Below are positions 8,566-62,996 of a DNA stretch of 64,000 nt, piece after piece. Position 1 is the first letter of the stretch. Each line of letters begins with the position of its first letter. The translations under genes were made by a program, and so were the position numbers. Source of the DNA: Patescibacteria group bacterium (GTDB lineage Bacteria; Patescibacteriota; Patescibacteriia; 2-12-FULL-57-11); the NCBI GenBank assembly GCA_004297205.1, contig SCUL01000002.1:594893-658892 (forward strand). Reading direction: 5' to 3'. The notes beneath the pieces are model-generated. The model ran no database searches. It saw nothing but the letters and a program-made list of their open reading frames with translations, and was not told where the DNA came from.

Positions 8566-9648
8566 TCAGCCCAGGAGATCGGCGACGTGCCGACGGACCC
8601 GGGCGACCTTGTCTTCCCAGCTGGTGTCCTCGACGCAGACGAGGCGCGGATGATCGGCCCAGGCCTCGCGCACGCGCGTGCCGCGCACCACGGCCTCCGC
8701 GTAGGACTCGGCGCGCGCCGGGTTGTTGGTCCGGTCACGCGCGTAGATCTCCGGCGGCGGCGGACAGAGCCAGACGACGGCGTCGTACTGGCCGAACTCG
8801 TGGCCGGTCTGCGACTGCAGGACCTCCATGAGCTCGGACACGCCGCCCTGCAGGTAGGCCGCGTTGTCCATGAGGCCGCGATCCAGGAGCAGCGCCCGCT
8901 TGCCGTCGCGCAGCGCCTGGTCGGCGCTGGCCTCCTCGAAGCTGCGCTGGACACGCGCCACGACGCGCTGGAAGCGCCGCGCGGCGAGCGCCTCCGTCGA
9001 CGGCCGGATCCCGACCTGGGCGATCAGGGTCGTCGCCACCTCCGGCACGCAGTGGACGGCCGCGCCGAACTCCTTCTTGAGCAGCGCCATGAGCGCGCTC
9101 TTGCCGGAGCACGGCCCGCCCGTCAGCACGATCCGCTTCATGGCCGTGGGCAGCAGCTCGCGCACCGGACGCTCGGGAAGGTCCTGCGCCAGATCCCGCA
9201 CCAGGTACGCCAGGTGCAGGTTGGTGAGCGAGTCGGTGACGTCGCGCGCCTTGCCGATCCAGGGCGGCAGGCTGGTCCAGGCCTGCTCGCTGGCCAGCTC
9301 CTTCTCGGCGATGATGAGGCCGGGCAGCGGTGCATCGAAGACGTCCACCGTCCAGCCGTCCTTGGCGTAGCGGGTCTTGTGCAGGACGGCGAAGCAGCTG
9401 CGGAGAAGCGTCTCCGCCGCCTCGACGGACACCGCATGCTCGCATTCTTCGCGCACCAGACCCCTGCCGGCCTTCCGGGTGATGACGGCGTTGCGCGTGC
9501 CCTGCAGGTCGGTGCTGATCCGCACCCGCAGGCTCGTGCCCGGCGGGCTCTCCAGGTAGCCCTGCTCGATCGCCACGCGCGGCGACCGCCGGAAATCCGG
9601 ATCGATCTGCGTGACCACGAAGCGGAACTCGATTTCCACGTTGTCCAT
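8566..9648 (-). CDS. CYTH (CyaB/thiamine-triphosphatase-like) domain fused to a P-loop NTPase/kinase domain (NadR/AAA_28-like)
   Basis: N-terminus EIEFRFVV...YLE (CYTH signature). C-terminus has Walker A LTGGPCSGKSAL and Walker-B-like LLLDRG. Start placed at the second Met (MDNVEIE), which has a GGGGAGGA RBS. Confidence 0.7.
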   Translation of the reverse strand: MDNVEIEFRFVVTQIDPDFRRSPRVAIEQGYLESPPGTSLRVRISTDLQGTRNAVITRKAGRGLVREECEHAVSVEAAETLLRSCFAVLHKTRYAKDGWTVDVFDAPLPGLIIAEKELASEQAWTSLPPWIGKARDVTDSLTNLHLAYLVRDLAQDLPERPVRELLPTAMKRIVLTGGPCSGKSALMALLKKEFGAAVHCVPEVATTLIAQVGIRPSTEALAARRFQRVVARVQRSFEEASADQALRDGKRALLLDRGLMDNAAYLQGGVSELMEVLQSQTGHEFGQYDAVVWLCPPPPEIYARDRTNNPARAESYAEAVVRGTRVREAWADHPRLVCVEDTSWEDKVARVRRHVADLLG

Positions 9649-9651
9649 GAA

Positions 9652-9700
9652 CGGTCCTCCCCGTCGACCGTACCGCGTCCGCCGGAATAAAAAAAGCGCG
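9652..9700 (-). terminator. Putative terminator after the 305-aa gene
   Basis: GC hairpin followed by T7 on the minus strand (plus-strand AAAAAAAGCGCGCTCGGAGAG...). Confidence 0.4.
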
Positions 9701-9868
9701 CTCGGAGAGTGCCTCACGCATCGGCGAACCGATGTGTGGGAACCCCCCGAGCGCGTGGGGATGCCTGCGGTGATCGCCGTCCGGCGATCGGTGCAGGCAT
9801 GTCCTGCCGTACTGCGTGGCAGGACCCGCCGCTTCCCCCGGCGACGGCCGACGCGACCTGCCGTGCGA

Positions 9869-10786
9869 TCAGGCGGAGAAGGCGGCCTGCGCGCCCGCGG
9901 GCAGGGGGTTGCCCTGGCGCGGGTAGGTGCGGATCTCCTTCGTGCCGTTGCTGGCGCGACCGATCGACGAGACGAACTGCTTGTTGGTCGTGTGGCCGAT
10001 GTAGTACTCGCCGTCGCCCTGCTTGGCGGGCCCGACGAGGATGTCGCCCTTCGGGTTGCGCGTGAGCAGCCCGGTGAGGTCGACCTTCTGGTAGCGGAAG
10101 TCCTCGCGCGTCACGACGACCGTGCCGCTCTCGAGGTCCGTCTTCGAGAGGAACGCGAGGTTCGCCCCGAAGTCGGCCTTCTCGGTCCAGCGGTTCTCCG
10201 GCAGGATGCGGCCCTTCTCGTCCACCGGCGTGAAGACCATGCGGTTGCCGAGCGTCCCGATCGCGCCGACCGAGCCGAGGAGCCGGATGTTCCGGATGTC
10301 CCACTCGCGGCCGGCGCTGATCTTGTGCATGCCCTCCGTCGTGCCGATGAAGCTCTCGACCGGCTTGTGGCCGTGCCGGAGCGCCAGCGCCGTGCAGCCG
10401 TACTTGCCGGCCGTGCGGTGCGCGTCCGCGACCATGAAGAGCATCGACTGCACGCACCCGAGGAGCTTGGTCAGCGGGTGTCCCTTCCCGAGCGCGCTGC
10501 CCGCGAGGATGTGCTCGAGACCGCTCTCGACGGCGAGGTGGAGCTTGCCCCCGTCGGTCTCCATCCACGCCACCTCGAGGAAGTTGCCGATCTCCTCGTC
10601 CGCGACCGGATCGTGGGAGGCCTCGTCCGCGACCTCGCCCCACCGCAGGAAGACCTGCTCGCCGTCCGGCGCGATCGCCAGCTGGCGGAGGTTCCCCGCG
10701 GTCACCTGCTTCTGCATGATGAGCGCGATCGCCTCGGAGATGGCCACGGTGCGGGCCTGGGTGTTCGACTTCTGGTAATGATGCAT
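9869..10786 (-). CDS. Hypothetical 305-aa cytoplasmic protein, no recognisable family
   Basis: Only frame in this region with a normal amino-acid composition (the other frames are Arg/Gly/Pro-rich artefacts). GGAGG RBS 9 nt upstream of the ATG. Preceded by a ~460-nt non-coding leader. Confidence 0.65.
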   Translation of the reverse strand: MHHYQKSNTQARTVAISEAIALIMQKQVTAGNLRQLAIAPDGEQVFLRWGEVADEASHDPVADEEIGNFLEVAWMETDGGKLHLAVESGLEHILAGSALGKGHPLTKLLGCVQSMLFMVADAHRTAGKYGCTALALRHGHKPVESFIGTTEGMHKISAGREWDIRNIRLLGSVGAIGTLGNRMVFTPVDEKGRILPENRWTEKADFGANLAFLSKTDLESGTVVVTREDFRYQKVDLTGLLTRNPKGDILVGPAKQGDGEYYIGHTTNKQFVSSIGRASNGTKEIRTYPRQGNPLPAGAQAAFSA

Positions 10787-11308
10787 CGTTCTTCGCCTCC
10801 GAACTCCCCGTGGGGAGGGTCATTGTCCCGTCGTCCGCAGACGGCGCCCCCCATGGGCAACCGGTGCTTTGGTACGGGTTCCCCCGAGCGCTGACCGGGC
10901 GCCGGAGTCGGGTATTGGTGCGGCAGCTCCGTGGGGAGATGCCGAGGCAGACGACCCAGGGCGCCCACCTTTTCAGGCCGGAAGTAGCCCCTTGGTTCCC
11001 CCGCCTTGGCGGGGGATGGTTGGACGAATGCCGTCGTCCCCGGTACAGCACCGAGCCCGTTTTCGACCCGGCAGCGGCGGCCTTCCCTGGAAAGCGGCTC
11101 CTGCCGGGCCGCAGTGGCCCGGAGTTCCTGCCGGAATCCAGCAAGAACGGTGACGATGTGGAAAGAGCGAAATCAAAAGGCCCCTTGCAGGGCGGACAAG
11201 AGCATATCGTCTGATGCCGGGAGCGTCAAGCGTCGAATGGGGATAATCCGAGGGGCTTGACAGAACGACGAAAAAAGGACAAAGGTGGTGCAGCCGCGGA
11301 GGTGCGGT

Positions 11309-11740
11309 ATGGAAAAAAGTTCGGACCAGGATGGTCCGCCGACACGCAGAGAGCGGCCGGAGCGTCCGTCGACCAAGCTCCTCTTCCCCAGGGTGTTGGT
11401 GGTGGGGACGGAATCGCATCTGCGCAGCAAGATCCTGGGACTGCTGCAGGCGCGCGGCTTCAAGGCCGAGGCGCTCGACAGCGGCATCGGCGCGATGGAG
11501 GCGATCTCACGGGAATCGTACAACACGGTGGTCGTCCTCGATCTGATCGACGCCATGAGTCAGGAAGCGGTCATTCGCCTGCTGCGCGGCAACGCGCGCA
11601 CCAAGGATCTCGGCATCATCGCCTTCGTGGATCCGCGGGCAGAACCGCCGGAGGGCGTCGACACGACCTTCGGCAAGGGGACGCTTTCCAACCTCACGGA
11701 CGTCATCGCGGACGTCTGCGAGGCGCGCGCGGGGCGCTGA
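11309..11740 (+). CDS. Stand-alone receiver-like (CheY-fold) protein with a degenerate acidic pocket (pseudo-receiver)
   Basis: LVVGTE replaces the canonical LVVDDE; a putative phospho-Asp is retained in VVVLDLID. GGAGG RBS 6 nt upstream of the ATG at 11309. Confidence 0.6.
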   Translation: MEKSSDQDGPPTRRERPERPSTKLLFPRVLVVGTESHLRSKILGLLQARGFKAEALDSGIGAMEAISRESYNTVVVLDLIDAMSQEAVIRLLRGNARTKDLGIIAFVDPRAEPPEGVDTTFGKGTLSNLTDVIADVCEARAGR

Positions 11741-11760
11741 TCTGCCCCACAAACGCGAAC

Positions 11761-11800
11761 GCGCCGCCCCCCCCGGGGACGGCGCATCTTTTTTTCTTTT
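11761..11800 (+). terminator. Intrinsic terminator after the receiver gene
   Basis: Hairpin GCGCCGCCCCC-CCG-GGGACGGCGC followed by a T-run. Confidence 0.6.
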
Positions 11801-11801
11801 T

Positions 11802-11876
11802 TGGAGGCCACGGCCGGAATCGAACCGGCGAATGAGGGTTTTGCAGACCCTCGCCTTCCCACTTGGCTACGTGGCC
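11802..11876 (-). tRNA. tRNA-Cys (anticodon GCA)
   Basis: Minus-strand cloverleaf GGCCACGTAGCCAAGTGGGAAGGC...CTGCAAA...GGTTCGATTCCGGCCGTGGCCTCCA. Confidence 0.8.
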
Positions 11877-11955
11877 GGGCTCGCGCAAGATGCGCGCACT
11901 GTAGCAGCCGTCCTGCTATAATTCAAGCCTCTTTCCTCCGTATTTCCCCAGGAAC

Positions 11956-61973: not shown

Positions 61974-62048
61974 CGGTCCGTAGCTCAACGGTAGAGCGGT
62001 CGTCTTATACACGACTGGTTGCTGGTTCGAATCCAGCCGGACCGACCA
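61974..62048 (+). tRNA. tRNA-Ile2-like with anticodon TAT (UAU)
   Basis: Cloverleaf CGGTCCG-TA-GCTCAACGGTAGAGC-G-GTCGT-CTTATAC-ACGAC-TGGTT-GCTGGTTCGAATCCAGC-CGGACCG-A-CCA; T arm nearly identical to E. coli ileX. Confidence 0.7.
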
Positions 62049-62054
62049 CATGAT

Positions 62055-62561
62055 ATGCCCCTCGTCCTCTTCCGCACCCCGTCCTTCCTGCGCAACTTCA
62101 TTTTCGGCGTCGAAGACTCGCTCGTTTCCACGGTCGGTTTGCTTTCGGGTGTCGCCATCGGCGGCGCCTCACGACGGACGATCTTGCTTGCCGGGATCGT
62201 GTTGATTTTCGTGGAAGCGTTCTCGATGGGCGTGGGCAGCTATCTCTCGGAGCAGAAGGCCCAGGAGTTTTCCAAACAGCGGATGATGCCGCCGCGCCGG
62301 GCGATCATCGGCAGCCTGGTGATGTTCGTCTCGTATTTCGTTTCCGGGTTCGTGCCGCTCGCACCGTACGTTTTTTTGGATCGCGATACGGCATTCGGCG
62401 TATCCATCCTGTGTTCGCTCATCGCACTCTTCCTGCTCGGCTTCGTCGGCGGGCGGCTGTTCCGGATGTCGGCCGTGCGTAACGGACTGGAGATGCTGGT
62501 CATCGGCGGGGCGGCGATCCTCATCGGCGTCGTCGTCGGCCGGTTCGTTCCCGCAGCGTAA
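62055..62561 (+). CDS. VIT1/CCC1 family (iron/manganese transporter-like) membrane protein
   Basis: FGVEDSLVSTVGLLSGVA and second-half repeat pattern of the VIT family. Start placed after the tRNA. Confidence 0.7.
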   Translation: MPLVLFRTPSFLRNFIFGVEDSLVSTVGLLSGVAIGGASRRTILLAGIVLIFVEAFSMGVGSYLSEQKAQEFSKQRMMPPRRAIIGSLVMFVSYFVSGFVPLAPYVFLDRDTAFGVSILCSLIALFLLGFVGGRLFRMSAVRNGLEMLVIGGAAILIGVVVGRFVPAA

Positions 62562-62580
62562 AAGCGGCCCCGGAAACGAA

Positions 62581-62611
62581 AAGACGGCCACCCTGAGGTG
62601 ACCGTCTTTTC
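62581..62611 (+). terminator. Intrinsic terminator after the VIT-family gene
   Basis: GACGGCCACC-CTGA-GGTGACCGTC hairpin followed by TTTTC. Confidence 0.6.
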
Positions 62612-62686
62612 TGGTGCCGGGGGCCAGAATTGAACTGGCGACGCCAGCCTCTTCAGGGCTGCGCTCTACCACTGAGCTACCCCGGC
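62612..62686 (-). tRNA. tRNA-Phe (anticodon GAA)
   Basis: GCCGGGGTAGCTCAGTGGTAGAGC...CTGAAGA...GGTTCAATTCTGGCCCCCGGCACCA. Confidence 0.85.
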
Positions 62687-62688
62687 TC

Positions 62689-62765
62689 TGGTGGGCGGCA
62701 GAGGAGTCGAACCTCTGACCTTCACAATGTCAATGTGACGCTCTAACCAACTGAGCTAGCCGCCC
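62689..62765 (-). tRNA. tRNA-Val (anticodon GAC)
   Basis: GGGCGGCTAGCTCAGTTGGTTAGAGC...TTGACAT...GGTTCGACTCCTCTGCCGCCCACCA. Confidence 0.85.
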
Positions 62766-62805
62766 AAACGCGGGAGCAGAATACCCAAGGAGCGCCGGTC
62801 TGTAA

Positions 62806-62838
62806 AGAAGAGCGCCCCTCTTTCGAGGGGCGCTCTTC
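62806..62838 (-). terminator. Hairpin 3' of the tRNA-Pro/tRNA-Gly pair
   Basis: AGAGCGCCCCTC-TTTCG-GAGGGGCGCTCT perfect 12-bp stem. Confidence 0.5.
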
Positions 62839-62913
62839 TGGAGCGGGCGAGGGGAATCGAACCCCTATCAGCAGGTTGGAAACCTGCGGTAATAGCCATT
62901 ATACGACGCCCGC
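62839..62913 (-). tRNA. tRNA-Gly (anticodon TCC)
   Basis: GCGGGCGTCGTATAATGGCTATTAC...TTTCCAA...GGTTCGATTCCCCTCGCCCGCTCCA. Confidence 0.85.
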
Positions 62914-62920
62914 ATCTTCC

Positions 62921-62996
62921 TGGTCGGGCCGGTGGGACTCGAACCCACGACTTCCTGCTCCCAAAGCAGGCGCGCTACCAACTGCGCTACGGCCCG
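62921..62996 (-). tRNA. tRNA-Pro (anticodon TGG)
   Basis: CGGGCCGTAGCGCAGTTGGTAGCGC...TTTGGGA...GGTTCGAGTCCCACCGGCCCGACCA. Confidence 0.85.

Follow-up and report, generated by a model that had tools for sequence, protein, structure and literature searches.

A conserved structured leader and a companion 3' untranslated region are predicted to bracket an exchangeable orphan gene in Patescibacteria

In the genome of a Patescibacteria group bacterium (assembly GCA_004297205.1, contig SCUL01000002.1), an orphan gene for a protein of 305 amino acids (aa) lies behind several hundred nucleotides (nt) of hairpin-rich DNA; hence the question of whether this leader is a functional RNA, and of what kind. 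The stretch analysed here, called the window, covers 64,000 nt (positions 594,893 to 658,892 of the contig) with a GC content of 64%, and all coordinates are given within it. The first-pass annotation, made from the letters of the window alone, had proposed a possible riboswitch or regulatory RNA. As judged from comparison with related loci (designated by L numbers), the leader is a new, narrowly distributed structured RNA which, with a companion structured 3' untranslated region (UTR), brackets an exchangeable orphan gene. With modest confidence, we read the region as a lineage-specific, cis-acting structured 5'UTR of approximately 408 nt, belonging to the mRNA of the 305-aa gene.

The open reading frame (ORF) of the 305-aa protein occupies 9869–10786 on the minus strand, with 305 codons and an ATG start, and is fast-evolving. 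A Shine-Dalgarno (SD) sequence, GGAGG, is located at 10796–10800 (minus strand), separated from the start by a 9-nt spacer. In a scan of 9500–11900, the only promoter-like site is the sigma-70-like TTGACG-17-TATGCT at 11201–11229 on the minus strand, compared with a mean of 0.1 sites in shuffled sequences. With the start taken approximately 7 nt after the −10 hexamer, the transcription start site (TSS) would lie at about 11194, and the 5'UTR would extend from there to 10787, a length of approximately 408 nt. The non-coding leader of about 460 nt (10787–11250) in the first-pass annotation thus exists, with a shorter transcribed length, since 11201–11229 is the promoter. Both promoter hexamers are kept in L001, L003, L014, and L015 while the spacer varies, and L004 and L018 carry TTGACA-17-TATATT. 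At the opposite end, a structured 3'UTR of four hairpins (9689–9868, minus strand, approximately 180 nt) contains 47 pairs, of which 17 are compensatory among eight sequences. Its last hairpin (9697–9755), with a long GC-rich stem, and the following U-run, which reaches 9689, form an intrinsic terminator. The near-consensus promoter, the GGAGG, the strong terminator, and the window's highest GC content at third codon positions (GC3) in the ORF would all be signals of strong expression.

Insertions and deletions distinguish the leader from the ORF. Of the 70 indel runs counted pairwise among the five closest leaders, only 9 have a length divisible by three, compared with 13 of 13 in the ORF, which bears out the view that there is no believable ORF upstream of the 305-aa gene. 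No ORF within the leader is common to the loci, and a stop codon blocks the 305-aa frame from extending upstream; therefore, a frameshifted gene filling the leader, the finding that could have overturned the proposal, is not what the comparison reveals. Long chance ORFs do cross the leader region in DNA of such high GC content, and they could be taken for a real coding region that is frameshifted or mis-called, but the 61 leader indels that are not multiples of three, together with the stopped extension and the missing common frame, render this reading extremely improbable.

The same unit, comprising a promoter, a leader, an ORF of approximately 300 aa, a 3'UTR, and a terminator, is present in nine related loci, all from metagenome assemblies of one Patescibacteria clade. 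Where the contig reaches far enough, the leader measures 378–432 nt. The syntenic order is PBP1A, tRNA-Cys, the divergent receiver-like gene, promoter, leader, ORF, 3'UTR, terminator, and polA. Homologues of the 305-aa protein were recovered by a word-index search (one, with 71% identity), an exhaustive HMMER search of 1.84 billion representatives (four further real homologues), a search seeded with the most divergent close-clade allele (four more), and a cluster look-up (one more). The word-index search with a five-member protein alignment missed known members, and P0007 and P0008 from the exhaustive search are uninformative repeat or low-complexity proteins. A search for the leader pattern GGGCTACNTNCGGCC-N(8–18)-CCTGGGTCG in GTDB genomes and JGI metagenomes gave only chance matches in unrelated coding sequence; in viral contigs, neither this pattern nor a protein scan gave any match. 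The loci L009–L013, from Hainich groundwater, are decayed (9920–10500 in L009), with the promoter and leader deleted and the ORF reduced to 108 aa; this remnant joins the N- and C-terminal ends of the ORF. The four-hairpin 3'UTR is retained in the decayed L009 locus with 81–84% identity, which hints at a role of its own, possibly as a terminator, an upstream element of polA, or a small RNA (sRNA).

Conservation of the leader can be set against the divergence of polA in the same genomes. The polA proteins of the window, L001, L003, L009, L014, and L015 are 84–91% identical, so that the genomes are about equally related, and polA has a synonymous divergence (dS) of approximately 0.73–0.86, with 59–62% of four-fold sites identical between genomes. 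Against this level, the leader is 80–82% and the 3'UTR 80–85% identical between genomes. In a sliding comparison with L003, identity is 87–93% in the 3' half of the leader, falls to 43–67% in the ORF, and returns to 83–92% in the 3'UTR, with the steps in identity located at the start and stop codons of the ORF. The leader and the 3'UTR thus appear to be under purifying selection and conserved beyond the neutral level.

The fold of the leader is supported in the same manner, resting on comparative evidence more than on single-sequence folding, in which the leader is modestly better than its shuffles (z = −2.24). A MAFFT alignment of six full leaders yields 96 pairs in 13 helices, with 92.4% of cells paired, compared with 36–52% in slid controls, in which the pairing partners were shifted by 1–3 columns. 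Simultaneously, the number of compensatory pairs is 24 compared with 2–11 in the slid controls, and none of 500 shuffles reaches the observed values. The most conserved portion is the 3' domain (10788–10995, minus strand; approximately 209 nt and 54 pairs), which ends just before the start codon. In this domain, 94.3% of cells are paired with nine compensatory pairs in a four-sequence alignment, and 94.3% with 14 compensatory pairs in an eight-sequence alignment, the slid controls of the latter giving 37–53% and 3–6 pairs. The covariance model R1, built from four sequences, scores 223 bits on the 3' domain of the window and detects leaders outside its training set, in L014 (219 bits), L015 (146 bits), and L016 (104 bits), with E-values from 1e-29 to 1e-63. 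A separate MAFFT/RNAalifold run on seven sequences returns the same helices. Furthermore, the unpaired stretches of the domain, namely GGGCUAC, CCGCACCAAUACCC, the GGUCA loop, and CCCAUGGGGGG, are strongly conserved. The structures were derived from the same few and partly close sequences on which pairing was scored, and an early five-sequence analysis included L004, whose alignment is unreliable. Conservation and covariation, whose lack in relatives had been named beforehand as refuting the proposal, are both present, and the leader is, in the light of these alignments, a structured functional RNA whose pairs are kept by compensatory changes across relatives. A possible pseudoknot was also noticed between the GGUCA loop (approximately 10888–10892) and UGACC (approximately 10822–10826, minus strand), upstream of the last hairpin; the four pairs of the candidate GGUC × GACC helix are invariant, and the fifth is Watson-Crick in three of seven sequences, with three different pairs.

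Along the leader, the individual elements differ in how widely they are kept. A 5'-terminal hairpin, GCCCU-GCAA-GGGGC, followed by a U-rich tract, is located at 11180–11193 (minus strand), a few bases from the predicted TSS. It is paired in 100% of cells in six leaders and is formed in L004 and L018 as well, with a changed stem. The CU-rich motif UUUCGCUCUUUCC (11160–11172, minus strand) is invariant within the clade of the window, and of the whole leader sequence only its core UCGCUCUUU persists in the distant L004/L018 lineage as well. The 5' end, including hairpin, U-rich tract, and CU motif, is thus the most widely kept element, and the rest of the leader is unalignable in L004 and L018. 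The CU motif is complementary to the SD region and also resembles the pyrimidine tail of 16S rRNA.

Between the CU motif and the 3' domain, the variable 5' half (10996–11159, minus strand) carries compensatory pairs in helices 2, 3, and 5. On the same strand, it contains an optional hairpin (11124–11148), a long stacked helix (11051–11122), a GGACGA/UCGUCC hairpin (11022–11039), and a C-rich hairpin TCCCCCGCC/GGCGGGGGA (10997–11016), in which four of five pairs change on both sides. The last of these, predicted at 10998–11017, is real and kept through compensatory changes, with its position off by one base. Hairpins of the 5' half are deleted in L003 and L014, replaced by unrelated but still-pairing sequence in L015, and enlarged in L002; such loss or replacement of whole hairpins is usual for the peripheral elements of a structured RNA. 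The inverted repeat CCGGGCCACTGCGGCCCGG (CCGGGCC...GGCCCGG) is present at 11104–11122 as described, but its arms pair with other partners. In both the minimum free energy and the comparative folds, CCGGGC pairs with GCUCGG and GGCCCGGCAGG with CCGCUGCCGGGUC, forming the longer stacked helix.

Known RNA families do not account for the leader. At gathering score, Rfam matches in the whole window are limited to 11 tRNAs, with nothing in the leader, and a permissive scan of 9600–11700 with the 4227 models of Rfam 15 gives three noise-level matches with a best E-value of 0.83: Hrs1 (19.8 bits, gathering score 56.4), AS-traI (20, 99), and mir-3150 (19.6, 100). The Rfam scan proposed as a check on the first-pass annotation thus matched no described RNA family. 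The same annotation had remarked on elements resembling those of a cobalamin riboswitch. The cobalamin riboswitch RF00174 has no match at E ≤ 10 in 9600–11700, and no B12 gene lies downstream. GCCACTG (GCCACUG) is conserved, but as a bulge or loop between two stacked helices, and 'AGGGAAGG' is a hairpin tip that is not conserved, being replaced by GUCGAGC..GCUCGAC in L001 and L003; any cobalamin link is thereby lost, and the resemblances are due to chance. A type III toxin-antitoxin arrangement, with ToxI-like tandem repeats of approximately 34–45 nt upstream, was likewise set aside, with no tandem or direct repeats found in 10787–11250.

If the leader acts in cis, its targets would be the stability of the mRNA and the initiation of translation. 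Its 5'-terminal hairpin would shield the transcript's 5' end, the CU-rich, anti-SD-like motif and a second stretch, CUUCCG, could pair with the purine-rich SD region, and the 3' domain would serve as a platform for a candidate trans-acting partner (small molecule or protein). RNAalifold pairs the CU motif with the SD region, and in the domain-only alignment CUUCCG takes that role. In partition functions, the partner of the CU motif is the SD/start region in three leaders (window, L002, L004) and a similar purine block at −39 to −50 in L003, and the motif of L001 has no partner. Among the possible duplex partners in five leaders, the SD window takes first place once, second place twice, and third place once, and falls below fourth place in the remaining leader.

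Several results weigh against the cis-acting reading. The CU motif does not have the same partner in all sequences, and SD pairing is not uniquely supported; the probability of the SD being unpaired, 0.15–0.58, is ordinary by comparison with 26 control genes, and the initiation region does not exceed these controls in structure. SD sequestration, approached through partition functions, duplex ranking, and the control genes, is not supported beyond plausibility. Neither a terminator nor an antiterminator is present between the leader and the ORF; the only terminator-like site within the leader is the 5'-terminal hairpin, at approximately +2 to +15 of the predicted transcript. A transcription-attenuation leader was therefore rejected, as the required intrinsic terminator before the SD is not present. 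Both the TSS and the co-transcription of leader and ORF are predictions. In addition, model R1 does not detect the 3' domain in the leaders of L004 and L018 even with filters off, the comparison comprises seven to nine sequences with several close relatives, so that the covariation statistics are weak in absolute terms, and part of the UTR similarity could derive from recent recombination rather than selection, as in the L004/L018 mosaic described below. Since the SD-pairing tests are indecisive and neither a terminator nor tandem repeats are present, commitment is limited to a cis-acting leader.

In contrast to its flanks, the 305-aa ORF is conserved less than any other part of the transcript that carries it. 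Its alleles fall into class A (the window and L001, 71% identical), class B (L003 and L014–L017, 50–81%), L002, and L004/L018; identity between classes is 25–42% (27–33% between A and B), compared with 84–91% for polA in the same genomes. By its 3' domain, the leader of the window clusters with those of L003 and L014 (89–90%) and not with that of L001 (79%); the ORF classes agree neither with the leader's relationships nor with those of polA. The ORF alleles have therefore apparently moved independently of their flanks, which points to an exchange of the coding cassette among strains, in which the conserved UTRs would in effect serve as homologous flanks for the divergent alleles. In the case of L004 and L018, identity is 97–100% from the leader's 3' half through the ORF and the 3'UTR and approximately 84% in the adjacent receiver gene, a mosaic that suggests a recent recombinational transfer of the cassette. 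Between the window and L001, the ratio of non-synonymous to synonymous divergence (dN/dS) is 0.86 for the ORF, a value inflated by a low dS of 0.20; polA has a ratio of 0.10 and the receiver-like gene one of 0.3. The dS of the ORF is atypically low (0.78 for polA), and 80% of its four-fold sites are identical in the pair. At 0.977, the GC3 of the ORF in the window exceeds that of all others among the window's 56 ORFs, whose median is 0.82; across all loci it ranges from 0.93 to 0.997. Such values could reflect very high expression with codon selection; alternatively, the ORF could be a recombination hotspot subject to GC-biased gene conversion. GC-biased gene conversion has been described for recombining bacterial genes (PMC4450053).

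Cassette exchange raises the alternative that the RNA is functionless and that the similarity of the UTRs is only a by-product of gene conversion or homologous recombination that frequently takes place around the cassette being swapped. The ORF classes that disagree with the leader relationships, the L004/L018 mosaic, and the extreme GC3, which could trace GC-biased gene conversion (PMC4450053), are all expected from it, but UTR substitutions are preferentially compensatory (24 pairs in the leader and 17 in the 3'UTR, far more than in the slid controls), unrelated sequences that have taken the place of hairpins still pair, the spacer of the promoter varies between conserved hexamers, and the leader length is held at 378–432 nt even where the sequence is unalignable. 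Recombination as the entire explanation thus seems quite unlikely. A composite of both views, in which the UTRs are at once a functional RNA (a scaffold or sensor of a ribonucleoprotein, RNP) and the recombination arms for swapping effector alleles, so that RNA and variable protein form a module of a new kind, limited to one Patescibacteria lineage, is a doubtful proposition at present. If it were true, it is what would be expected of a host-interaction, self/non-self, or anti-phage system under frequency-dependent selection.

Two further readings retain a functional RNA but assign it another role. A new riboswitch class, whose 3' domain of approximately 210 nt would bind a metabolite and alter access to the adjacent ribosome-binding site, would suit the conserved multi-helix architecture with its strongly conserved unpaired stretches, directly upstream of the SD, and the two pyrimidine and two similar purine elements that could form alternative pairings. 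It is less easily reconciled with the missing Rfam match and expression platform, with a single orphan gene without metabolic or transport signature in one narrow clade, and with a core that is not kept in L004 and L018; we consider it unlikely. The leader might instead be a functional RNA in its own right, either a processed non-coding RNA (ncRNA) or the RNP partner of the encoded protein, co-transcribed with the ORF. The RNA is more conserved than the protein behind it, the two always occur together and decay together (L009–L013), the proteins are soluble and mostly basic (isoelectric point, pI, 6.8–9.4), and the size and complexity of the RNA resemble those of large orphan ncRNAs. Nevertheless, no RNA-binding fold or domain was detected in the protein, a protein at 30% identity is hard to reconcile with specific binding to an RNA at 90%, and neither a terminator nor a processing signal precedes the SD, leaving this reading rather improbable as well. 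The cis-acting structured 5'UTR accordingly remains the reading we prefer.

The protein itself provides few clues to its function. The first-pass annotation had described a minus-strand gene with a GGAGG ribosome-binding site and no recognisable family, as is borne out by the ORF check and by searches of families and structures: single sequences and profiles of five and ten members found no match in Pfam, NCBIfam, PHROGs, PADLOC, or the PDB sequence set. The NCBI record names the product 'hypothetical protein EPO33_04330 [Patescibacteria group bacterium]'. The AlphaFold2 (AF2) prediction with two sequences reached a mean local confidence (pLDDT) of 41, and with five sequences a pLDDT of 67.9 and a predicted TM-score (pTM) of 0.50. 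The latter model combines a small alpha/beta domain at the N-terminus with a long helix and a C-terminal half rich in beta structure (pLDDT 74–90). In Foldseek searches of PDB and BFVD, this model has weak, partial beta-propeller matches (E-values of 6e-4 to 1e-2, TM-score approximately 0.3). The best matches are all propellers, as examined for WD40/YVTN/TolB-like folds, and remain weak with approximately 150 residues aligned; a Pfam search for repeat families, as a test of the beta-propeller, gave no match. Seven residues, D41, E87, H140, E151, R168, W200, and Y232, are invariant in ten homologues and could constitute a candidate active or binding site. All ten homologues also share a C-terminal Ala (..AAFSA, ..AQAAA, ..QTIAA). 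Neither a signal peptide nor a transmembrane segment is predicted in the homologues, whose pI is 6.8–9.4, neutral to basic, and these properties weaken an S-layer or secreted-antigen reading.

The genes on either side of the unit had been taken for parts of a small signalling module. Upstream, a divergent receiver-like protein is encoded at 11309–11740 on the plus strand. Its profile matches are weak, with NCBIfam E-values of at least 1e-3 and Pfam Response_reg found only in L004 and L018; GT, GA, or SD stands in place of the acidic DD pair, and the conservation of the phospho-acceptor Asp does not extend to L004. Since the acidic pocket is not kept and the matches are weak, 'pseudo-receiver' is a fair label. 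Comparison with L003 and L009 places its probable start at the ATG at 11309 and not at the GTG at 11285. This gene is a usual, not an obligatory, neighbour: it adjoins the unit in seven of the eight loci whose upstream side is visible, is absent in L001, where the leader and ORF are kept, and is retained in L009, where both have decayed. Downstream, an AAA_28 P-loop protein with a CYTH-like N-terminus and an EIEFRF motif is encoded at 8566–9648 on the minus strand, its probable start being the ATG at 9648, after a GGAGG, and not the GTG at 9717. CYTH is matched in the L015 orthologue alone, with an E-value no better than 0.023. This gene follows the unit in two of seven loci with the downstream side visible, the window and L015, and L014 carries an unrelated 152-aa ORF in its place. 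With such inconstant neighbours on both sides, the signalling module finds no support. Just upstream of the locus, a tRNA-Cys(GCA) is located at 11802–11876 (minus strand), and in L001 it is approximately 60 nt from the leader promoter. Two tRNA clusters are located elsewhere in the window, at 727–1271 and 61974–62996.

Post-transcriptional regulation in Patescibacteria (Candidate Phyla Radiation, CPR) has hardly been studied, and in the open literature no RNA of this kind was found described for the phylum. The locus provides a well-delimited candidate for a new RNA family, with a promoter, boundaries, helices, and a covariance model in hand. Its evolution is unusual in that the UTRs are more constrained than the protein they bracket, which occurs as deeply divergent, exchangeable alleles. 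If the RNA senses something or binds a partner, it would be among the largest cis-acting leaders and an entry to an abundant-looking orphan protein of ultrasmall bacteria; if the leader is only a stabiliser, it would extend the catalogue of known leaders only modestly.

The leaders of ompA, aprE, S-layer genes, and rpoS are long structured 5'UTRs by which abundant mRNAs are stabilised or gated. Like these leaders, the present one has a 5'-terminal hairpin near the predicted TSS, together with a strong promoter, SD, and terminator. A particular likeness exists with rpoS, whose leader of several hundred nt contains distant pyrimidine stretches that pair with the initiation region. However, SD occlusion is not predicted here, and we know of no Hfq or sRNA partners in the Patescibacteria phylum. 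Simple stabilisers also differ from a leader of approximately 400 nt with some 13 helices and a 210-nt block that is approximately 90% identical, where the neutral level is approximately 60%; the constraint is far above what a simple stabiliser needs. With riboswitches such as the cobalamin riboswitch (RF00174), it shares a structured 5'UTR element beside the SD and conserved unpaired nucleotides. Compared with OLE, ROOL, GOLLD, and raiA, the leader is similar in its length of several hundred nt, its many helices, and its conserved sequence blocks, but those RNAs are free-standing genes, all included in Rfam, whereas this one matches no Rfam family and is fused to an SD and an ORF, from which no terminator separates it.

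Furthermore, the exchange of the ORF resembles allelic-cassette loci with conserved flanks, such as the flagellin, pilin, and S-layer antigen loci. Deeply divergent alleles occupy one syntenic site in close relatives, identity breaks sharply at the borders, and the allele phylogeny is incongruent with that of the flanks. Unlike in the antigen loci, the protein has no signal peptide, transmembrane segment, or known secretion signal, no silent copies lie nearby, and the conserved flanks are structured UTRs instead of coding termini.

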